Notes: generated by a model not told the origin, from the sequence alone. DNA of 64,000 nucleotides from Oedothorax gibbosus (GCA_019343175.1 JAFNEN010000097.1:29448-93447); one strand, 5' to 3'; positions 3,778 through 62,846 are shown, numbered from the stretch's first letter. Made by a program: numbers and translations.

Positions 3778-4496
3778 TTGTACTGACGATGTTCATCTAG
3801 AACAAAATGCTTAACTGATAGAAACACACTGAGTTCAGTGTGCAAATAGACCAAAAACACATGTAAATAATCCTTATTCACAAAGTGAATAAGGTTTAAT
3901 TCTAGCATCCGTTGGCGAGATTATGTTCACCCTTTTTTTAGCTTGTCGTTTTGAAAAGACACAACCTAAATATTACCTTTTTCGACTTGGAGATTTCCCC
4001 CTAAATGCTTTCAAAATTAATGCTTTAATATCTCATCAAATAATGCAAAATAAATAATTATTTTTTATATCTGGGGTATTTTGAAGGTGCTGAACATTTG
4101 TATGTAAAAAAAATTGGGTGCTGCCTTTAGAAATTTCAAAGTTGGTACTCATTTTAATATGCAAACGACCCCATACCCTTTTTGTTGCCATTAATCAATT
4201 CCTAATGCTATTTTCTGAAAAATGGTTTTCTTTCACAAAAGCCCTTGATCAATAGCAGCCGAGTAACGAGGAGTGAAGCGGTTTTTTCCCCAGCTGTACC
4301 TTTGCTAAATATTTATCGGTTCACATAATATCAAAATCCATAATGTTTTCATCCAATGAAAATATTATTTTTTTTAAATAAATGAAATATTTAGGGTGCA
4401 GAAATCGTTTCCTGAAAAGCTGTTAAGGTTTACAGATTTTGTTTTAAATCATAGAAAGTTAATAAGTTTATTGGAATAATATTTTCTCTTTTACAG

Positions 4497-6262: not shown

Positions 6263-7096
6263 AGAGATATAAAATTTCATTTTTTTCCTTCGTACAATTT
6301 ATCTGTTAAAAAACTTCTTTTGCGATCAAATTACAAATTGTTCATATAAAATAAAGAGATTATTTCTGTAAATTATACAGATTTTTTCTGGCACAAAAGC
6401 TAACAGTTTTTTTCTTCTGTAAAAACAACATACTTTTTTAACAGTACAGAGGGTTCGGCAAGATGACTAAAGGCAATACTTTCAAATTGAAAAATTATTA
6501 TATTTGAATAGAATTATATTTTATTTATTATATTTGAATTTGAAAGATCCACAGAAACAGTTTAAGATTTTAAGTGGTCAATTTTTCTGTTATAAGATTG
6601 TTTTTTTCTATTCTAGTGTGTATGTGTAATTGATTGCATTGTCAATTAGACATTGAGGCTGAAATTTAACTGAAACGCTTCGAATTCGCACCAGATTGAC
6701 CTGCAAATACGATCGGTTTGAGCTCCGCCCTGCAAACGCTCTCAAAAAACCGTATTTAACTTCTCAAACCACGCGAATTCGTGCTCAAGGGCGTGTCATT
6801 CGAGCATTCGATAAGAATACTACACCTGCCTCTTTTTACGTGAAGTTGACCAATGAAATAATTCGAAAATCACTGGATATATAGAGAAGAGCCAATCCCG
6901 TTCTTAAGATTCATCCAAAGCGTTTACGTTCTTTTCAATGAATCGTTTAAAAAAACGAATCTTTTGATTCGTTCTTTTTTGGCCAAGCGAGTTGGAACGA
7001 TTCGTTATCCAAACGATACATAATAAACTTCTTATTAGGCAAATCTATTGGGTTTCCCCTCACAGCTTAATAAGTTTCCGGTTGGGGTTTCTTTTT

Positions 7097-7180
7097 TTCT
7101 TGTAAAAATAATATGGTATTTGACATTTTTTAAGGTGTTCTTGTAAAAATAATATGGTATTTGACATTTATATTGAGTGC
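7097..7180. repeat. Tandem duplication, ~43-bp unit x2 (cttgtaaaaataatatggtatttgacatt)
   Basis: Direct sequence repeat. Confidence 0.8.
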
Positions 7181-8094
7181 GAAACAGTAAACAAACAGTT
7201 CGCACCCGATCGCTCGAATGGCCTGAAACCAATCGTGGCTTGACGTCATTCGCGCGCGACGGATTTGTTTCATTTCAATTGAAGAGCTTGGTGGAAGAAC
7301 GTGCTAAGTGACAAAAAGGTGAAAACGGGATAATGAGCTTCAAAGTTTTTAGTTTGCAACTTCTCTCTCATTCACAAAATTATAGTTTTTTTTTGCATGA
7401 TATTTTAGTTTGGTTTTTCAAAATGCTTGGTGGCTTTTGGCTTAACCGTAATTTACGTAATAACACGAAATTTACAAAACGCGCTTGACACCTCATGCAC
7501 TTGGCACGTTTTTCCTCCGAAGTGCTTCAGATTTTGGCAGTCGTTTAGTTCAAGAACGTGTTAAGTGACATTTTTGAGGAATTTTGGTCCATACCTGTTT
7601 CATAATTTCTGTACTAACCTTCCGATTTTCAAAATTCTTTTTCTGTTTGGAAGATAGGACTTCACAGATCTCTTTTATACTTTTTAATCGTTTGCCTGTC
7701 CGTCCATCATGTTGTCCGTCCATATCCCTTTCAATTTCCGATCCAAAGTGCCTGATTTTGAAAATTATTTTTTTGGTTCGAAGTAAAAAGTTAGATGACT
7801 ACAATGTATAGTGTTTAGCCACCTGCCTGTACGTCTGTTATTTTGTTTCTGTCCGTACGTCCTACTACCCTCCCCCCCCCCCAACTTCCTTTGTACCCGT
7901 CCAATTTTTAAAGTTATTGCTTTCATTTACCTAATATAAAATATAAGGTAATAAAACTATTGCGATGGGGGGTCAATAATCCAAAATGAATATTTTGTGC
8001 TTTCTACACGTTTTGGAGGGTGCTCATTCTAAAAAAATTGTTTTTTTTTTACATTGATCCGTCTGTCTGTCTGAAACTACTTTACAGTTCGAAA

Positions 8095-8370
8095 TAAAAG
8101 AGCTACGGACTTCCAATTTAGTACACGGGTTCCTAGTTCCTGTTGGGCGTCATAATAAGGTTTTCGAGAAAATTGCGCATGCGCAAGTAGAAGCTGCTAT
8201 AAAGTTTTTTTGGTTTTAAAGGTATTGCTGAACAACGAAAATAGATACATACTTCAAATTTGATACACGTGTTCCCTGTACTAGTCGGACGTCAAAATAA
8301 AGTTTTCTACAATATTGTGCATGTGCAAGGAGTAGCTGCCATAGAACTTTTTAGGTTTGAAAGTTATTGA
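8095..8370. repeat. Diverged tandem repeat, ~140-bp unit x2
   Basis: 'aaataaaagagctacggacttccaatttagtacacgggttcc...gcgcatgcgcaagtagaagctgctataaag' is followed by a diverged copy 'aaatagatacatacttcaaatttgatacacgtgttcc...gtgcatgtgcaaggagtagctgccatagaac'. Confidence 0.6.
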
Positions 8371-8388
8371 AAATACTTTATAAGGTAT

Positions 8389-8680
8389 ATAGGGTAGACT
8401 AACCAGTGAATGAACGCTTAAGCCAAGTGAATGAACAGTTCTTTACCAGTGAATGAACACAAAAATATCCAGTCAATAAACATGTTGGATTTTAATTAAA
8501 AACTAGATTCATTGACATTTTCATGCTCAGTATTTATTTTACAAGTCTTACTGACAACTAGAAAAAAGGTTTCTCCAATTCATCCAGTGGAATGATTTTC
8601 AATCCTTATTTTTTAAATGTATTTTCCAACTGTTCATTCACTGGGGCCTGTTGTTCACTCACTGGTCAGTCTACCCTATA
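8389..8680. mobile_element. MITE/foldback element (~290 bp) with ~30-bp TIRs
   Basis: Left end tatagggtagactaaccagtgaatgaac and right end gttcattcactgg..ctggtcagtctaccctata are reverse complements. The arms carry cagtgaatgaac subrepeats. Confidence 0.7.
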
Positions 8681-10803
8681 ACTTTTATATGAGCATATTG
8701 ATATATAGTGTTACACATCCCTAGTTTTTTTTTTAAGATATCAGTCACCTATCTTATATTTTTTGTACCTCCGTCTGCCCCTACTATAAGGATTTCTTTG
8801 AGTATTTAAGCTAAAAAAAAAGTAGGTTATATAAGTTATTTTAGAACTTCTTGCTTAATGTTAGATGAGTAAGTTTTTAATTGAAAATATTTTTAAAAAA
8901 TACCATTATCACTGAAATTATAAACTAAATACTTTGAAGAATAATAAGATAAATCAACTTATTAAAAAGTATACAAAAAGATAGTAAAAGAAACACAAAT
9001 GCATGTGAATGAAATAAATATTAAATTTAAAAGACTTATAAAAAAAAGATAATAATGCAAGATGTAAGTTTTCTCAAATTAAATTTTTAAATAGTTTTTG
9101 ATAAGAATAATCGAATTTAAAAACAAACTTTGATATTAAAAAAAAAGTAAAAATAAGTTGTATGGCAAGATATAGATCTTAAGGTTATTTACGTTTTTCT
9201 TTCTCCTTTTCAATTAAGTGTTTAATCAATTTTAAGAAAGCTATTTTAATTTACAGCATTTCTACAACAGTACAACATGATCGTTTAAACAATTTATTTT
9301 TACAATCGTGATGCATAGTACTTTTTTAAAGTCATCGATATTTTAATAAATATTATGAACTTATAACATTTTATATTTTGTTATTTTATTTTTACATCAA
9401 TTATTATAAAAATATTTTAGTTTTACCTAACAAAGCAATATCTTGATTAAATTTGTACTTACCTATAAGCTGCTATTCACACTTTCAAGCAAAAATTCAG
9501 TTTTCCGAATTGCTTCTTAATTCCATTTTAATAATTTTAGGAGTTTAGGACATTGCACAAAATGCGTTCGATAGCTTTAGATATCAAACATAAAATGGCT
9601 TTAAAACGATTTTTGTACCCATAATTCATTTTTTTAAACAAACCAGATGCTTTTAATGTTCGGTGCAATGTTGTTTTAACGCAAACTGCGATCTCCATAG
9701 AGCAGGTGCAACTTTGTTTTAATTATACCATCTGTTCGCTGCTAAATTATCTATGTTTATTACAATAAAAATCAGACGACATTCAAAGTAGACAATATTT
9801 TATAAAATGTTAAAACCTTTAATTCCGTCTAAATTTAAAATCAAAATGCATTTTTTTCCCTCTTTTGCTAAATGCACTCAAAGCCCAGTTTTACGCAATA
9901 TAAATTTTATTTTATTGATTATATTTAATAATTAAAGTTAATTAGGAAATATTAATTACATTTTGTTGAATTCTTTTTGATTAATACTACAAGAGAACCA
10001 TTTGTTTTGCTATTAATGCAAGCGAAAGTATGAAAATTTTCCGCAAACGTGTCACTTAGCACGTTTTTCCACTAAACGATCGTTCCGAAATCGGGCGATT
10101 TCGTTGGAAGAAAATGCTAAGGATCTTTAGCACGTTCTTCCATTGAAAAGTGACGAAAACGCGTGCACCTACCAACTTCGTATGCGAAAAATATACGAAA
10201 TCGAATGTTTTCTAAAAAATTGAAAGCTGTTATGTTTAAAGCAAGTAATAACATGATCATTGACACAAAAATCTCAATTTTTTCAAAAATGTCACTTAGC
10301 ACGTTCTTCCACTCAGCTCTTCAATTAGGAAATGAGCAAAATCTTCAAATCTCCACCCATCCGCAGGCGAATCGATCGCGTTGCGTTTCAGTTAAATTTT
10401 GCCCTAAGTGTGCTTATTTGTATGCCCCTCTCTAACTAAGGAGCTTTATGTACCAGCCTCAAGGTTCCTTGGATCTTAATAGAAAGGACTATGTGTGTCG
10501 TTTAAATAGGTTATTTATACTGTTTGCACCAAAGCGGTCGTGAGTAGATTTTTGAGTTTGACCGCATACTGGGGAGTCCTTATCATTTAAACGTTTAAGT
10601 TGGTGTAAATACGATTATGGGTTAGATGATGATAGAATGTTTGCTTGGTTCACGTTGATGGTATTATAATTTTCATTAAAAATCAAACTAAATTTGATAC
10701 TGTAATCTCTTCCAAAAAGTAAATTTGATGTAAAAAATTTTAGGTAAAACTAAAAGATTTTTAGGTGTAGATTTTGTTTAGCAACACGAAAAATTATATA
10801 CAG

Positions 10804-12420: not shown

Positions 12421-12562
12421 CCAGCGTGCCGACACAGCTCAATTGGAGAGCGTTGGACTGAAGATCCAAAAGTCCGTGGCACGAGACCGTGTTCAGTAGT
12501 TTATTAATCCTCGGTAGTTATTGTGGTCAGTATCCCAGCCTGTCACTGGGGTGACTGAGAGA
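12421..12562 (+). mobile_element. tRNA-Phe(GAA)-derived SINE-like element
   Basis: GCCGACACAGCTCAATTGGAGAGCGTTGGACTGAAGATCCAAAAGTCCGTGGCACGAGACCGTG is close to canonical tRNA-Phe through the anticodon arm, then the T arm is degenerate. It is followed by the shared body ...tcctcggtagttattgtggtcagtatcccagcctgtcactggggtgactgagagata. Confidence 0.6.
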
Positions 12563-43388: not shown

Positions 43389-45346
43389 ACATAATTATAC
43401 AAATGTGTTGCCCCTCAATACAACACATCCACCCAATGCAAAAAAAAAAATTACACCAAACATATAAACAGTAGCCAATTTCTAATAAATTTATACAGAG
43501 ATAAGAGAGCTGTTAAAAAAAACTCAGTTTAGTACAAAATATAAGTAGGTTTCTAAGTGTGTAGTTATTTAATCTGTTTTATTTTTAATAGTTATTTTGA
43601 AAAATTGTCCTATAATGGTCATTTGTTGTATTACAACTATATGTTTGTTGTGGAAGTAGTCATTTTAAGATGTAACCCACTGTTTCAATTGACTGACCAA
43701 TAAAAACAAAGTGTTGTTGAACCGAATTGTTCTGTGGACCATTCTCGAGAACCAACCATGTTTTCTTTCAATAGATTATACTAGTTTAAAAGGAACCTAA
43801 TGTGGCATTAAAAATATTTTAGCTATAAATTACAGTTATTTAAACTTTTTTTTCTGGGAGTACAAGCACATTCATTATTTGGATGGAGTATACAATTTTA
43901 ACGTACATTGTCTATAAGCTAAACTGTCCCTTTGCCATCCCTTTTCAAGTACTCAAAAATTTCATATTCAATATCCTACATGCAGTACATAGACATTGTG
44001 ATTTGCCTGTATTTTTTTCCTTTACATTTCAATAAATTGGGTCAGAAACAGGAAGATAAGGTTAAGGCAATAATTATATTATTTCATTAGTTTTACTTAG
44101 CAAATAGGCTATAAGTGGTCTGTTTTTAATGTATCATTATTAGAAGTGTAGAGAAAAGATGGGAATTTGATATTGTTTTGGTTTTAATGATCACTGTCAT
44201 CTTTTCAAAGCTACTAAAAAGTCTTATGAAAAGGTGATGTCTATAAAGTTATTATTACTTCCTGCCTAACAGCTCTGATGAGGCTGAGAGCAGGACATAC
44301 AAGGAGCCTAAGATTCAGGGTGAGAGAAAAGGGCTATGCCCCTTGCCATTGTGGAGCCACTGTTTATCTATCTCACATCTTAGTTTGAATTGGTGGCCCA
44401 TTGTTGAAGTGGTTGGTGAGGGGGGAATATATAGGAAAATTGTGGCAGCTTTATCTTTTGGACCTAGTCTAAGGATGCCTAACCTAGGGAGTGAGAAAGA
44501 AGATGTGCTTTTATATAATCTTATCAACAATATAATTTTACATTTACATATAAATAACTATATTTAAACAACTAACAATAATAATTTATAATAAAAATGT
44601 AATTTGTTTTTGTAATAAAACAAATTTTCAACCTAAAAGTACTCTTCACTCTCTAGTATTTGGTTGCTGTTCTTTACATATATTTTTTAAATTTTTACCA
44701 TCAGTAGGGTAGACCGGGGGAATCGCGCCACCTTAAGGGAAATTGAATTTTCATGCAGAGTTGTGTTAGAATAATTGTAAATTGTAACAAACATAGCATA
44801 CTACATTTCATAACCTATCTTGTAGTGATTTTTTAAACTTGAAATCTTTAATAATAACTGAATAAAATTGTTTTTTCTAAAAGCTTGCAGAGTGGCGGTA
44901 TTACCCCTGGGTTTATGCCGCTAGGGGTTATGCCGCCACCCATCAAAACACAGCAAATAATCTATGAATAATGGCAAAGGATGTAATAAAGCACAACATA
45001 TAGCACTAAAATAGGTTGAATTAAATGAAGAATTTAATTAAGAAGTTTAACAAATATCGCACGTGTAAAAAATGGCTATTACTTGTCTCTGCTATGGTCT
45101 CTGCCATAGTCTTACTATTTTTAACAAAGTAATAAGTGTAATAAATGACTATTAGTTAGTCTATGCCATATTATACTTTAAATAAAAATTGTGTTGGCCT
45201 AGTAAATGGCTATTAAGTCTCCGTAGTTCTACTCTGAGCAAAAATCTCAAAGAAAAGGATTGGCATAACCCCGGTAAGACATAATGGCGTAGACGGCTTG
45301 TTTAGGGGAAGGTACATAGCCTAGCGTCCAAACTAACAATGTGATA

Positions 45347-48129
45347 GTCATTCCACGTCAAATCAACACACTCATTAAACATCACCGTCTCAGATTTTGC
45401 TGAAATTTGGAACAACAGTAGTGTTTATATAGTTATTTGTGAAATGAAAATTTTTATTCACAAATATTGATCTGTTTAAAAAATATGGCACTTTAAAAGT
45501 TCAAAAAATTGGTCAAAAAACCGCATCCGACCAATTTTCAAATTGACCTAGAAGCTTTCCTAATTAAGCTAGAGACCTGGGATAGGTGTCATCTGACAGA
45601 GATTTGTATGAACTTTTTAATGATATGTAACACACTTAGTATATATAAGATTTTATTTAAATTAAAATTTAATTAAATTTTAAAATTTAAATTTTTTAAA
45701 AAAATACATAATTTAAACTTTCGAAATTAATTACACGAATAGTTAGGACTCTTTCACATCATCTGACAAAATATCATGTTGGGATGAAAATGGGTTCATT
45801 GATAAAAAAATTCAAAACTAAAGCTTGTTTTTCATCAATAATTGTTTTTAATAATAAACTTGATCAACTAATTTTAAAAATGACCTAGATGGTTTCCTAA
45901 TTAATTTAGAAATGGTGTTAAGTGCTAGTTTACAGCAATTTATAAGAAAAATTTTAATAAAATATAACACACTCAGATTATAGAAGATTTTATTTAAATT
46001 AAAATTGAATTTTAATTTTTTTTTTTTAAAATGCTCTTAAAATTTTAAAATTATTTTTATGAATAGTTGGTATTTTTTTAAACAATATATGGGTAAAATA
46101 TCATTCTGGTATAAGAATTGGTTCATTGCTAAAAAAAATCAGAACTGAAGATTGTTTTTCATTAATAAATGTTTTCACTATTAACCTCGATCAAGCAATT
46201 TTTAAAATGACCTAGGAGGTTTCCTAATTCAGCGATAAACCTGTGGTAGGTTACATTTTACAACAATTTGTAAGACCTTTCTAATGACATGTAACAAATT
46301 TAGAATATAAAAGATTTAAATTAAATTACAAATAAAAAAGAAACAGTGGAGCTTGTTTATCATTATTGTTAGTTAATAATTCAGCTTAGGAATAACACAA
46401 GAATACTAATATTAACACTACCTTTATAATAAATCTGAATGATAACCTGAAGAAAGTTTCATTTGTAGTTTGAAAAAGCCACATTTGTTTGGAAGACATC
46501 ACTTTGAAGTAGAACATAACTTCTTCCAGTGGGAGTCACAGGATTAACTTTTGCTAGAATGTCCACTACTGACACCCACAAAACATCAGCGTTTCTTGGA
46601 TACGAGAATGATGCAGCTGGCCCAAATGGGTGAAGAAAAGTTGTCTTTACCTCATCAAGTTCATTTTTCTCCAATCTCTGTCTCTTTACTGAGCCTCCAA
46701 CTCCGTCGCAAGGCCCTTTACCATGCGATGTGGCTGAAAAGTGCCACTCTGCTTTTACATTAAAATCTGTCCCGGTGTATGCAGGAAACTGGTGGCTCGG
46801 GTACGTTTTGGAGAAAAATGAACTTAATGAGGTAAAGATAACTTTTCTTCACCCATTTGGGCCAGCTGCATCATTCTCGTATCCAAGAAACGCTGATGTT
46901 TTGTGGATGTCAGTAGTGGACATTCTAGCAAAAGTTAATCCCGTGACTCCCACTGGAAGAAGTTATGTTCCACTTCAAAGTGATGTCGTCCAAACAAATG
47001 TGGCTTTTTCAAACTACAAATGAAACTTTCTTCCGGTTATCATTCAGATTTATTATAAAGGTAGTGTTAATATTAGTATTCTTGTGTTATTCCTAAGCTG
47101 AATTATTAACTAACAATAATGATAAACAAGCTCACTGTTTCTTTTTTATTTGCAGTTTACTTTAAATCTTTTATATTCTAAATTTGTTACATGTCATTAG
47201 AAAGGTCTTACAAATTGTTGTAAAATGAAACCTACCACAGGTTTATCGCTGAATTAGGAAACCTCCTAGGTCATTTTGAAAATTGCTTGATCAAGGTTAA
47301 TAGTGAAAACATTTATTAATGAAAAACAATCTTCAGTTTTGATTTTTTTTAGCAATGAACCAATTCTTATACCAGAATATTTTACCCATATATTGTTAAA
47401 AAAATACCAACTATTCATGAAAATAATTTTAAAATTTTAAGTATGATTTTTAAAAAAAAAATTAAAATTCAATTTTAATTTAAATCTTAATCTGAGTGTG
47501 TTATATTTTATTAAAATTGTCTTATAAATTGCTGTAAACTAGCACTTAACACCATTTCTAAATTAATTAGGAAACCATCTAGGTCATTTTTAAAATTAGT
47601 TAATCAAGTTTATTAATAAAAACAATTATTTATGAAAAACAAGCTTTAGTTTTGAATTTATTTATCAATGAACCCATTCTCATCCCAACATGATATTTTG
47701 TCAGATGATGTGAAAAAGTCCTAACTATTCGTGTAATTAATTTCGAAAGTTTAAATTATGTACTTTTTTAAAAAATTTAAATTTTAAAATTTAATTAAAT
47801 TTTAATTTAAATAAAATCTTCTATATTCTAAGTGTGTTACATATCATTAAAAAGTTTATACAAATCTCTGTCAGATGACACCTATCCCAGGTCTCTAGCT
47901 TAATTAGGAAAGCTGTAGGTCAATTTGAAAATTGGTCGGATGCGGTTTTTTGACCAATTTTTTGAACTTTTAAAGTGCCATATTTTTTAAACGGATCAAT
48001 ATTTGTGAATAAAAATTTTCATTTCACAAATAACTATATAAACACTACTGTTGTTCCAAATTTTAGCAAAATCTGAGACGGTGAGGTAGAATTTTGCCGA
48101 AAAGTGTGTTGAATTGACGCGGAATGACT
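45347..48129. mobile_element. Foldback-like giant palindrome (~2.8 kb): two ~1.35-kb inverted arms, each built from three ~330-bp tandem subrepeats plus a unique ORF-bearing inner segment, around a ~130-bp unique centre (46678-46806)
   Basis: Left arm 45347-46677 is the reverse complement of right arm 46807-48129 at high identity (for example gtcattccacgtcaaatcaacacac vs gtgtgttgaattgacgcggaatgac at the ends). Subrepeats begin with gacctag(a/g)(a/t)g(c/g)tttcctaatt at 45545, 45881 and 46210, mirrored at 47265, 47575 and 47915. Mirror-image ORFs of 71 and 97 aa sit at the inner ends. Confidence 0.8.
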
Positions 48130-48399
48130 CGATAACATAGCCAAATTATTGCTCTTTTCAATGATATGTAACCGATTTATCTAACTTAGGGATAACAGTC
48201 ACTTATTTCTGAGTTTCTGAAGATTCAAAATTAGATGAAACTCACTAAAAAACTTACTTTTTTTACAACGTTACACCAACACACCTTTTGGCCATAAGCC
48301 TCTCTATTACTGATTACTGTGTTTCCTGCTACAGGTCAGTGCTTACAGTACCCCCTCTACACACACCGCTGGCGAGATACAGGGCCCACACAGCCACTA

Positions 48400-59336: not shown

Positions 59337-62300
59337 ATGTCAGAGCCAGAAGAAGATGAAAATATAATTAAAAGAATAAACAGCAATGATTCAAGTGTTA
59401 TTTATAAAGCTTTAAAACAAATAAAACTGTTGTATTTCAATGATTCTAGCAAAATGCTACGATTTTTTAAGTCAGCAGTGATAAAGAAAATAATTTCTTT
59501 TATAGAGCATCCACATTTATCAACTTTATCTTTAAGTATCATTGCTGATCTTTGTATGAAAGATAATTATATCCCAGAAATCATTCAAAACTATGGAATA
59601 AATGTGTTATTAAGAAATATGGATAGAACAGTGAATGAAGACATTCGAAATAGAGCATGTAGGGCCCTTGGTAATATAGCTAATTCTAAAATAGGACTTG
59701 AAGCTGTTTATAGTGTGCAACCCATTCCTGTAAATCTAAGTTTTCTTAGTGGTACGGAAAACGTTAACTGTCAACAAACAGCTGCAAGGACCTTGCGCAT
59801 TCTTGCTAAAGATCATAAATCAAGAGATTTCATTATTCAAGAAAATGGAATAGGTTTGGTTTGTAATTTACTACATTCAAAATCCAAGGATGTCATTAAG
59901 TGTAGCATTAGGGCTTTAGCTGAACTTACAGAAAACTGTAACATTCATAGTGCTCGACAGGTGAAGGAAAGGCATGTTTTAAAAATACTGGTTGAACTTT
60001 ATTCCTTCTCCAATAAAGACATAAAAGAGCACATATTAGCAATTCTAAAAAATCTGTCTGCTATTGAAGAAATTAGATATGATTTATTGAAAATTGGTGC
60101 ACTAAAAATTTTTGCTGAAGCATGTATGGGTTCTGTTTCTTCTGAATCCTCTAGACATGCTGTATTAGCATTATGCTGTTTGTTGGACCGGCTTCACATT
60201 TGGGAAGGAAACGGAGTAACTAAAAAAGGTGGTTTAAAGGCAGTTCTTGAAATTCTCCGACAAAGTACATTTGAAGATATTCATAAACAAATCCTCATCG
60301 CACTTTATCCTCATTGTTATGAACCCAATATACCAGATATACTCTTTGAACAAGAAATAATAGAAATTTTGTTACAGGTTCTTAAACGTTTCATTGCATG
60401 TAACAAAGATGGACATTCGAACCCTGCTCTTGAATATTTCCATCTCCAGGTTCCATCTGAAGTGGATGGAGAGTTGAGTAGAAATTCCCTAACAAGTTAT
60501 AATTCTGAAGAGGATCTATCTTTAGAAGAGAAATCATATGAAAATTCCAACTTTCCCTCCTTTTCTGATTCCATATCAAAGTTTCCATTTATCCAACCCT
60601 ATCCTAATCCCATAAAGAGTTTTCCAAATTACAACTCTTCATCGCATTTAAACCTACACAGTTCTGGTGCTGAAAGCAATTGTAGTCCATGTAGTTCAAG
60701 AAGCAATAATCCAAGGTCTCCAAGCATATATTCTGATTCTGAAGTAAGTTCTCCTCTAATTGATCCTTGGTCACCCCAGTCGATTGTTAATGCAAATGAA
60801 TGTTTATCTCCTGTTTTTAGTTGCTCAGAAGATTCATGTGATGACAACAACTTTAAAAAAGTTGATGAAAAATATGTACAGCTTTCAAGTTTAACAAGAA
60901 CTGAAAAAACAACTACAAACGATATTTACGATAGTATCACAGTCTGTAGTCCAAAGTCATGTCAAAGTGCAGCAGTTGTGATTTCTATTCAGGATAACAA
61001 ATCAGACGCTCTTTTTACACCAATTCGTAAAGACAAAGATGAATCAGGTGGCTTTGAAGAGTTTCATGACGTAGAACCTCTTTCTTCAATTCTAAGTTGC
61101 TCAGAGGATACTTCTGATGACGATGACTGGATAGTAGTTGACGACTATATATATCCAAATTCAACCAATGTTACTCTGACCCATGAAACAAGTGTTTGTG
61201 ATTCAGTTGTGTGTAGTTCCTCAACCTCAGATCCAAATTTGGATTCTAAATCTGCCAAAGAGTGTGACACATCTTCAGCAACTCAGATTCTAGTTGATGA
61301 TGATATATTGCCAATTTCAATAAACGTTACTCCTATACATGCAAAAAGTGTTTGTGATTTAGCTGTGTGTGTTCCATCAACATCTCAAGATACCGCCATT
61401 ACGGATTCTAAGTCCGCCCAAAAATGTAATAAGTTATCTACAGAAATTTACAAAGATAGTAATCTTTCATATACTAAAAAAGAGAGTGTAAAAATTGAAG
61501 CCATGCATAGTCCAAAAGATTTATCACCTACAGTAAAACGTAAAGCAGACGTAGATATTATAGGAATACCTATTAAAAAAATAAAAATATCTTCTGCCCC
61601 GAACGTGTCCCATAAGCTAGAAATGTTTGCAGAAAAGTGTACTTTAGATCATTGTGTTTTACTATTCCTAGATCAATTATCATTTCATCTTGAAAAAAAA
61701 ACCAATTCTCAAATCGCCAGTAGAAGTTGCTTTTCAGTTTTAATGGACTATATAGTGTCTATCAATAACCCGAACCCCAAAGCTGAAAAGATTCTCCTAA
61801 ATTTAGTAAAAAATAGGTATTGTTTTGAAAAGCTCATTATGAGTGGGTTTGTGGCTGATATGGATAAAATAATGATTGTGAATCATTCATTGAAAAACTG
61901 TATTCGATGTTCAAGTATACATGATACTTATACTAAATTGATTTCAGCTTTAAGAACTGTAGCTGAATCCACATATGGAGTGGGTACTTTATGCCATATT
62001 TTATCCACTAAAGATGAAACTTGTCAATTTTATGCTGTCCATGCAATGTCACATTTAATTCATTCTACATGTTCGTTATTTAAACTAACATTTCAGTGTA
62101 ATGGTTTATCACTTCTCTTTAGTTCTCTTTTGAATGAATTAAAAGAAGTTAGTTCTTTAGCTGTGATATCCCTTTGTAATATATATCAAAAGCTACCAAA
62201 AACTACACTCATTACAAATCTTAATAAGTGTTGTTTTTCCAAATCATGTTGTTTGAATGTGTCACCTAATTGTATGTACTTGGAAGATGCCATTACATAT

Positions 62301-62846
62301 GATGTTACATTCCTTGTTGACAACCACAAAGTTTCAGCTTCACGGGAAAAACTTAGTAGAAATTCTGAATATTTTAGAGCCCTCTTGGATGGACACTTTT
62401 CTGAGAAAGGAAAGGATATTATTTTGATGGACTTAATATCAGTCACATCATTAACTGCAATATTTCATTTTCTTCATGGATGTTTAAATAATAATACTTG
62501 CCGGTTTCTAAAGGACCTGAATGTCGAAGAACTTTTGGAATTATTATCTGAAAGTGAACCATTTTTGTTGTCAGATATGAAAGCATTCATAATTGACAGT
62601 TTATGTCACAGCTTCACTCCTAAAGATATATTTAAAATTTACAAAGTTGCTAAGATTTTTGACTGTACAGTACTGTGCCAAAAGACTTTGCACTTTGTTT
62701 TGAGTACAAACATTTCACACACAAAATTTCTAGTTAAGTTTTTTGAATATATATCGAGCTTCAAAGAGTATAATGCTTTAAGTGATATAAAAATATTAAT
62801 ACAAAATATTTTTGCAGAGTGTCGGTATTATGCATGTAAAGATTAA
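59337..62846 (+). CDS. ARMC5: ARMC5-like protein: N-terminal armadillo repeats, Ser-rich low-complexity middle with two tandem ~45-aa repeats, C-terminal BTB/POZ domain. Uninterrupted 1169 codons
   Basis: A 3.5-kb ORF in a ~70% AT genome. ARM-repeat signatures (..NEDIRNRACRALGNIANSKIGLEAV.., ..NCQQTAARTLRILAKDHKSRDFIIQENGIGLVCNLLHSKSKDVIKCSIRALAELTEN..). BTB signature ..YDVTFLVDNHKVSASREKLSRNSEYFRALLDGHFSEKGKDIILMDLISVTSLTAIFHFLHG.. ARM followed by a C-terminal BTB is the ARMC5 architecture. The listed start is only the first in-frame ATG, about 25 nt after an acceptor-like tttcag at 59311; the frame is open upstream. Confidence 0.85.
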   Translation: MSEPEEDENIIKRINSNDSSVIYKALKQIKLLYFNDSSKMLRFFKSAVIKKIISFIEHPHLSTLSLSIIADLCMKDNYIPEIIQNYGINVLLRNMDRTVNEDIRNRACRALGNIANSKIGLEAVYSVQPIPVNLSFLSGTENVNCQQTAARTLRILAKDHKSRDFIIQENGIGLVCNLLHSKSKDVIKCSIRALAELTENCNIHSARQVKERHVLKILVELYSFSNKDIKEHILAILKNLSAIEEIRYDLLKIGALKIFAEACMGSVSSESSRHAVLALCCLLDRLHIWEGNGVTKKGGLKAVLEILRQSTFEDIHKQILIALYPHCYEPNIPDILFEQEIIEILLQVLKRFIACNKDGHSNPALEYFHLQVPSEVDGELSRNSLTSYNSEEDLSLEEKSYENSNFPSFSDSISKFPFIQPYPNPIKSFPNYNSSSHLNLHSSGAESNCSPCSSRSNNPRSPSIYSDSEVSSPLIDPWSPQSIVNANECLSPVFSCSEDSCDDNNFKKVDEKYVQLSSLTRTEKTTTNDIYDSITVCSPKSCQSAAVVISIQDNKSDALFTPIRKDKDESGGFEEFHDVEPLSSILSCSEDTSDDDDWIVVDDYIYPNSTNVTLTHETSVCDSVVCSSSTSDPNLDSKSAKECDTSSATQILVDDDILPISINVTPIHAKSVCDLAVCVPSTSQDTAITDSKSAQKCNKLSTEIYKDSNLSYTKKESVKIEAMHSPKDLSPTVKRKADVDIIGIPIKKIKISSAPNVSHKLEMFAEKCTLDHCVLLFLDQLSFHLEKKTNSQIASRSCFSVLMDYIVSINNPNPKAEKILLNLVKNRYCFEKLIMSGFVADMDKIMIVNHSLKNCIRCSSIHDTYTKLISALRTVAESTYGVGTLCHILSTKDETCQFYAVHAMSHLIHSTCSLFKLTFQCNGLSLLFSSLLNELKEVSSLAVISLCNIYQKLPKTTLITNLNKCCFSKSCCLNVSPNCMYLEDAITYDVTFLVDNHKVSASREKLSRNSEYFRALLDGHFSEKGKDIILMDLISVTSLTAIFHFLHGCLNNNTCRFLKDLNVEELLELLSESEPFLLSDMKAFIIDSLCHSFTPKDIFKIYKVAKIFDCTVLCQKTLHFVLSTNISHTKFLVKFFEYISSFKEYNALSDIKILIQNIFAECRYYACKD

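Follow-up and report, generated by a model that had tools for sequence, protein, structure and literature searches.

In the Foldback (FB) transposons of Drosophila, the inverted arms consist of short, hierarchically expanding tandem repeats of 10–31 bp and the target duplication (TSD) is 9 bp long. In maize, hairpin transcription and silencing by siRNAs have been demonstrated for Mu killer and for the inverted Ac/Ds duplications that result from alternative transposition. A TSD of 4 bp is a feature of the Sola2 transposons, and the Sola2 elements of Dictyostelium and Polysphondylium have short inverted ends (TIRs) of 12–21 bp (PMC3627910). Abortive gap repair and template switching are known to yield deletion derivatives and rearranged interiors in other TIR transposons (PMC3814204, PMC8277862).

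Here we analysed a palindrome that lies in a stretch of 64,000 nucleotides from Oedothorax gibbosus (GCA_019343175.1 JAFNEN010000097.1:29448-93447), hereafter called the window. With a probability of about 0.8, we interpret it as one decayed, rearranged and non-autonomous copy of a Sola2 element, a cut-and-paste DNA transposon of the Sola superfamily, which lies on the minus strand and whose TIR was extended inward into its own transposase gene. The locus resembles Sola2 elements in its parent protein, which matches the core of Sola2-1_HM (the Hydra type element) and carries a DDD triad, in its TIRs and in the 4-bp TSDs of its relatives, and it resembles non-autonomous Sola2 derivatives, which are internal deletion forms such as the loci L001 and L003 of Araneus ventricosus. 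It differs from Sola2 elements in that it retains 94 nt of the catalytic core together with two inverted copies of the C-terminal barrel, in that its inverted repeat measures ~1.33 kb and reaches into coding sequence, and in the amplification of a 330-bp subterminal unit. With the FB elements of Drosophila it shares the long inverted arms, the internal repetition and the little that lies between the arms, and it is likewise potentially recombinogenic, but it belongs to another superfamily, with a TSD that in its relatives has 4 instead of 9 bp and with 2.45 diverged units of 330 bp instead of arrays of 10–31 bp. Like MITEs and other deletion derivatives (PMC3814204, PMC8277862), it combines a microhomology deletion and a rearranged interior with intact TIRs; unlike MITEs, it is much larger (2.8 kb), and a switch between its two TIRs would have duplicated part of it in inverted orientation instead of simply deleting sequence.

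The inverted repeat and its subrepeats

The arms of the inverted repeat occupy positions 45346-46674 and 46808-48129 and are separated by a spacer of 133 nt, in agreement with an earlier note on this DNA that had placed an inverted repeat here. Aligned over its full length with the reverse complement of the right arm, the left arm shows 1275 matching positions, 37 mismatches and 27 gap columns, the latter distributed over 11 events. The resulting identity of 97.2% over ungapped columns is far above the chance expectation, and this value, together with the 11 indels, means that the palindrome is not perfect, contrary to what had been claimed. The mismatches affect 7 of 326 inner and 30 of 986 outer positions (Fisher p = 0.56), and the arms are evenly alike inward of the terminal ~40 bp. 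No inverted symmetry was seen beyond 45345 or 48131, and the 64-kb window contains no second copy of the inverted repeat. The coordinates of the features discussed in this study are collected in Table 1.

Table 1. Features of the palindrome in the window and homologous elements of Araneus ventricosus. Positions without a locus name are those of the window.
Feature	Coordinates	Strand	Remarks
Candidate 4-bp target duplication GATA	45343..45346, partner 48131-48134	.	
Left terminus (3'-type end) and non-repeated subterminal TIR	45346..45518	-	starts AGTCATTCCACGTCAA
Left subrepeat array	45519..46336	-	~2.45 units
Units of the left array	45519-45855, 45856-46182, 46183-46336	-	last unit partial
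22-nt motif TGACCTAGnnGnTTTCCTAATT	45544..45565, 45881-45902, 46208-46229	+	one per subrepeat
3' untranslated stretch, left	46337..46458	-	stop codon to subrepeats
Left copy of the transposase C-terminal barrel tail	46459..46674	-	LEKNELDEVKTTFLHP...AFSNYK*; 71 codons + stop
Sola2 catalytic-core fragment	46675..46768	-	94 nt; ..DFNVKAEWHFSATSHGKGPCDGVGGSVKRQR; third catalytic-Asp motif CDGxGG
Junction of minus-strand core fragment and plus-strand barrel	46769..46774	.	position ambiguous within 46769-46783
Right, inverted barrel tail	46775..47023	+	VYAGNWWLGYVLEKNELNEVKITFLHP...AFSNYK*; 82 codons + stop
3' untranslated stretch, right copy	47024..47144	+	inverted-repeat blocks I2, I3
Right subrepeat array	47145..47936	+	mirror image of 45519-46336
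22-nt motif TGACCTAGnnGnTTTCCTAATT, further sites	47252-47273, 47565-47586	-	
Sixth copy of TGACCTAGnnGnTTTCCTAATT	~47892-47912	-	1-nt deletion
Right terminus (5'-type end)	47937..48130	+	ends ..TTGACGCGGAATGACTC
Homologous element, L001	4239-7026		
Homologous element, L002	~7083-9869		94.7% duplicate of L001, including left flank
Homologous element, L003	7147-8981		

The three tandem subrepeats of ~330 bp that the earlier note had described in each arm are real as repeats of that length, but each arm holds ~2.45 units and not three full ones. Neighbouring units are 72–74% alike, whereas mirror units in opposite arms are ~97% alike, which indicates that the amplification of the unit is older than the last homogenisation of the arms. 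At a likeness of ~73% the units are too diverged for TRF to report, and the output of this program in the arms comprises only four small AT-rich arrays with periods of 11–18 bp, each of 33–40 nt. In the TIR of the Araneus relatives the subrepeat unit is single-copy. The pattern of the 22-nt motif TGACCTAGnnGnTTTCCTAATT was matched five times, against 0 matches expected from shuffles, and one diverged copy is present in the right TIR of Araneus. This motif is a candidate transposase-binding site.

Coding remnants of a Sola2 transposase

The ORFs that the earlier note had seen mirrored at the inner ends of the arms are indeed present on opposite strands. The mirrored peptide is 74–83% identical to hypothetical proteins of the orb-weaver spider Araneus ventricosus, and a Pfam search with it returned no family. 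It had been described as not assignable to any domain; our analysis identified it as the C-terminal Tudor/chromo-barrel-like domain of a Sola2 transposase. The suggestion that the ORF was either captured or element-specific is correct in its second half, as no host gene is involved, but nothing was captured: the tail of the element's own gene was duplicated. The left barrel tail is 80.6% identical to residues 57-128 of the Araneus protein P0001. The right copy, which is 86% identical to L001, reaches 33 nt further into the gene and thus has 11–12 extra codons (VYAGNWWLGYV) relative to the left one. The two ORF copies differ at 6 sites, five of which are non-synonymous, and the inverted-repeat block 46349-46674 / 46808-47133 that includes coding sequence is 98% identical between the arms.

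The centre of the palindrome, previously taken to be unique, is composed of two more fragments of this transposase gene, one on each strand. Its 133 nt are made up of 94 nt of core fragment, a junction of ~6 nt and the 33 nt by which the right barrel copy exceeds the left one. The minus strand of the centre encodes the conserved motif AEWHFxATSHGKGxCDGxGG, which recurs in many protein fragments; when it is read in this direction, the core reads ..AEWHFSATSHGKGPCDGVGGSVKR and continues into the left tail, so that ..DFNVKAEWHFSATSHGKGPCDGVGGSVKRQR is followed directly by LEKNELDEV... At the protein level the core fragment (46675-46768) is 86–90% identical to P0020 and P0024, and at the DNA level positions 46681-46768 are 83% identical to L001 5731-5818 in the opposite orientation. 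The fragment is fused straight to the left barrel tail (46674/46675) with ~365 bp missing, and the deletion junction shows TTGG microhomology. No other Sola2 coding sequence was found in the 64-kb window. The element of the window is dead and non-autonomous and encodes no functional product.

Elsewhere in the window, the plus strand contains an uninterrupted ORF of 1169 aa (59337-62846) whose product combines a BTB domain with armadillo repeats of the ARMC5 type (PF24768, E 7.5e-46). No other ORF in the window reaches 130 aa, and this one apparently represents an intronless ARMC5-like host gene. A tRNA match on the plus strand at 12428-12498 scored 30.7 bits in Rfam against a cut-off of 29, and ARAGORN reported no tRNA anywhere in the window; the match is probably a tRNA pseudogene or the head of a SINE.

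The Sola2 transposase family

The RNase H-like core of Sola2-1_HM (Repbase) was taken from the supplement of Majorek et al. 2014 (PMC3985635) and compared with the proteins related to the remnants. It matched residues 483-611 of P0081 with 48% identity (E 2e-38) and P0024 with 47% identity (E 4e-42), and these core matches show that the parent protein family is that of the Sola2 transposases. Three Asp residues are invariant in the family, in accordance with a DDD triad on an RNase H-like fold. Full-length proteins of the family have ~780–950 aa. A profile search with the family retrieved 8725 representative clusters at E <= 0.001; its members are spread over beetles, thrips, whitefly, hagfish and frog, and almost all carry the label uncharacterized. 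Pfam assigned no family to eight full-length relatives, neither MULE nor any other transposase, a profile search against the PDB sequences gave no match, and a literature search with the family motif strings DFAENY and HGKGPCDG returned nothing relevant.

Sola2 transposases end in a conserved Tudor/chromo-barrel-like domain, which is found in P0081, P0166 and P0087 as well as in other proteins of the alignment and whose conserved aromatic residues are Y743, W747 and F766. This domain might tether the transposase to chromatin. In a limited literature search we found no mention of a barrel-like domain in Sola2 transposases.

Two database records of this family deserve comment. P0196, a full-length Sola2 transposase of 814 aa, is filed under a 'Sedimenticola sp.' MAG as a hypothetical protein and is probably animal DNA that was binned into a bacterial MAG. 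P0156 of Frankliniella fusca bears the name 'DNA-directed RNA polymerase subunit beta' and looks misannotated.

Related elements in Araneus ventricosus

The comparison set consisted of three loci of A. ventricosus, two of which (L001 and L002) are duplicates of each other. Their elements measure 1.8–2.8 kb and have TIRs of ~595 bp, 89–93% identical within an element, that cover almost the entire 3' untranslated region. The termini read GGGTCATTCCATGTCAA and the ends GGGTCATTCC, and the target duplications are clean and 4 bp long (AGCA/AGCA in L001, TGTT/TGTT in L003). L001 and L002 carry a core fragment (L001 5731-5818) and, on the same strand, the barrel (L001 6150-6401), with ~330 bp of coding sequence between them. 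L001 retains coding sequence for roughly residues 379-813 of the transposase, and its right TIR starts ~30 bp past the stop codon. L003 is without the core fragment and is a further deletion derivative.

The surroundings of these elements also show some peculiarities. The L001 element is flanked by direct repeats of ~150 bp that are 83% identical (4086-4238 and 7030-7184), and it was probably inserted into a tandem repeat. In L002 the left flank is common with L001, the right flank is different and the right terminus is damaged. A further element terminus, GGTCATTCCATGTCAA, lies on the minus strand at L003 163-178, near the start of the locus, which places a second family member ~7 kb from the first in Araneus. 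For the more distant Sola2 fragments L004 and L005, no TIRs and no TIR similarity to the window were detected, and for this reason they provide no evidence on the TSD.

Termini and target site

The ends of the inverted repeat are true element termini. The left terminus of the window is homologous to the Araneus termini GGGTCATTCCATGTCAA, and comparison with the Araneus copies showed the termini to be conserved between the two species: (G)AGTCATTCC and GGGTCATTCC. The two types of end were distinguished by aligning all eight termini of the window element and the three Araneus copies. In Araneus, each of the three copies has a 9-nt block similar to GCAAAATTT, together with neighbouring bases, at its 5' end, and none has it at its 3' end. 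The right end in the window carries this block (CAAAATTCT) and the left end is without it. The window element thus has an end of the 5' type at 48130 and one of the 3' type at 45346, which indicates a single element in minus orientation. A wholesale fold-back copy of one arm was also considered and is ruled out: it would give identical ends, whereas the observed ends are of different types.

Three registers of a 4-bp target duplication were compared in the window: GTGA/GATA agrees at 2 of 4 positions, TGAT/CGAT at 3 of 4, and GATA/GATA at 4 of 4 only if the left end lost 2 nt, a loss that would sit at the AGAG slip site of the left terminus. The 9-bp duplication that the earlier note had proposed to look for at the ends of the palindrome is not convincing, as CAATGTGAT and CGATAACAT match at 5 of 9 positions, which we estimate to occur by chance about once in 10 cases in AT-rich DNA. 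Sensitive BLAST searches of the flanks against the element gave weak AT-rich matches only. A stretch of 26 nt, CTTTTCAATGATATGTAACCGATTTA, at 48154-48179, 25 nt outside the right terminus, is 85% identical to a conserved part of the subrepeat (BLAST E 0.006); it may go back to an earlier insertion of a related element, or the match may be due to chance.

Origin of the palindrome

Several other origins of the palindrome were weighed. The locus had been classed as a Foldback transposon, and with its very long inverted ends and their subrepeats it is indeed a transposable element of foldback-like shape; the long inverted arms, the internal subrepeats and the short centre would all fit the FB family. 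The assignment fails on the protein, the TSD length and the organisation of the repeats. The coding remnants are of Sola2 type and the full-length relatives contain no MULE or other Pfam transposase; the TSDs of the relatives have 4 bp and no convincing one of 9 bp exists here; short tandem repeats do not make up the arms, in which TRF reports only the small AT-rich arrays; and the subrepeat is single-copy in Araneus. Of all origins considered, membership in the FB family is the one we find least probable, being close to negligible. An origin from two copies, inserted head to head or nested, of which a later deletion spared only the 3' halves in a face-to-face arrangement, is suggested by the 5'-truncated appearance of both halves and by flanks that show no clean target duplication. 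Such a model needs two 3'-type termini, however, and the right terminus is of the 5' type. The arms are moreover uniformly 97% identical, share the same 2.45-unit array and have truncation points within ~100 bp of each other, all of which makes the two-copy origin unlikely.

A chromosomal fold-back inversion at a transposon-bearing locus, in which a break is followed by hairpin priming and inverted duplication, would leave a palindrome whose spacer is short and asymmetric, with microhomology at the junction, and this combination, typical of fold-back repair, is what we observed. Such an event would nevertheless run on into host DNA and leave two identical ends, while the symmetry found here ends precisely at the termini that are conserved in Araneus and gives way to unrelated flanks; we judge the inversion to be rather less likely than the two-copy origin. 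Palindromes are also known as an artefact of long reads, and a chimeric hairpin read could in principle have entered the assembly. Against this, the arms are distinguished by 37 substitutions and 11 indels, among them the end-specific block of 9 nt that is conserved across species, distinct flanks are present on both sides within the 64-kb window, and such inverted ends are a normal feature of the family. An assembly artefact is, in our opinion, less probable again than the fold-back inversion and only a little above the FB assignment.

The evidence is best explained by a single Sola2 element with an inwardly extended TIR, and a rearrangement of this sort is an ordinary kind of transposon decay. 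The lineage would have started with TIRs that were already very long, as in the Araneus relatives (~595 bp). A subterminal unit of ~330 bp would have been tandemly amplified to ~2.45 copies and have spread to both ends, and the TIR would have been pushed past its inner border, 216–249 bp into the ORF. In this way the 5' side would have gained, in inverted orientation, the 3' UTR together with the final 82 transposase codons, and the inverted copy would have replaced nearly all of the original interior. The only remaining piece of the gene body, the 94-nt core, was presumably joined to the original barrel tail by the ~365-bp deletion at TTGG.

The arms are evenly ~97% alike, as against ~89% for the TIRs within an Araneus element, and exchange between the inverted ends is therefore the best reading of their similarity. 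Judging from the product, template switching between the TIRs during repair synthesis is the most likely mechanism of the extension. During gap repair after excision, or during replication, a nascent strand that copies one TIR would re-anneal to the near-identical inverted TIR; copying would then run beyond the TIR border into the tail of the gene, and the ends would be joined by microhomology. Comparable structures could also arise through gene conversion of one TIR by the other, or through alternative transposition. Further movement of the element could be conceivable only if a Sola2 transposase supplied in trans recognises the intact termini and the subterminal motifs.

Implications

The inverted duplication of a TIR and part of a transposase gene is a feature that the palindrome has in common with loci of the Mu killer type, as its arms, which are 97% identical, comprise the TIR, the 3' UTR and 216 bp from the coding sequence. 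It differs from Mu killer and the Ac/Ds duplications in that the duplication affects the gene at its 3' end, in its animal host and in being known from its sequence. By analogy, the palindrome might act as a hairpin-RNA silencer of active Sola2 elements in trans, a role that we consider improbable. If it were true, read-through RNA would fold into a hairpin of ~1.3 kb, with 216 nt of transposase coding sequence, the 3' UTR and the TIR in its stem, and the locus would be a natural source of siRNA or piRNA and a candidate self-made transposon 'vaccine' in an arachnid. Independently of such a role, long and near-perfect inverted repeats can bring about fragility or hairpin RNA.

The chief value of these results lies in annotation, since an exotic-looking palindrome with an unassignable ORF turns into a remnant that can be classified as Sola2. 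They also draw attention to the Sola2 transposases as a very large animal family that is without a Pfam model and is carried as "uncharacterized" in public records. For the biology of these elements, the case shows how inverted ends that are already long may grow further by copying across each other.
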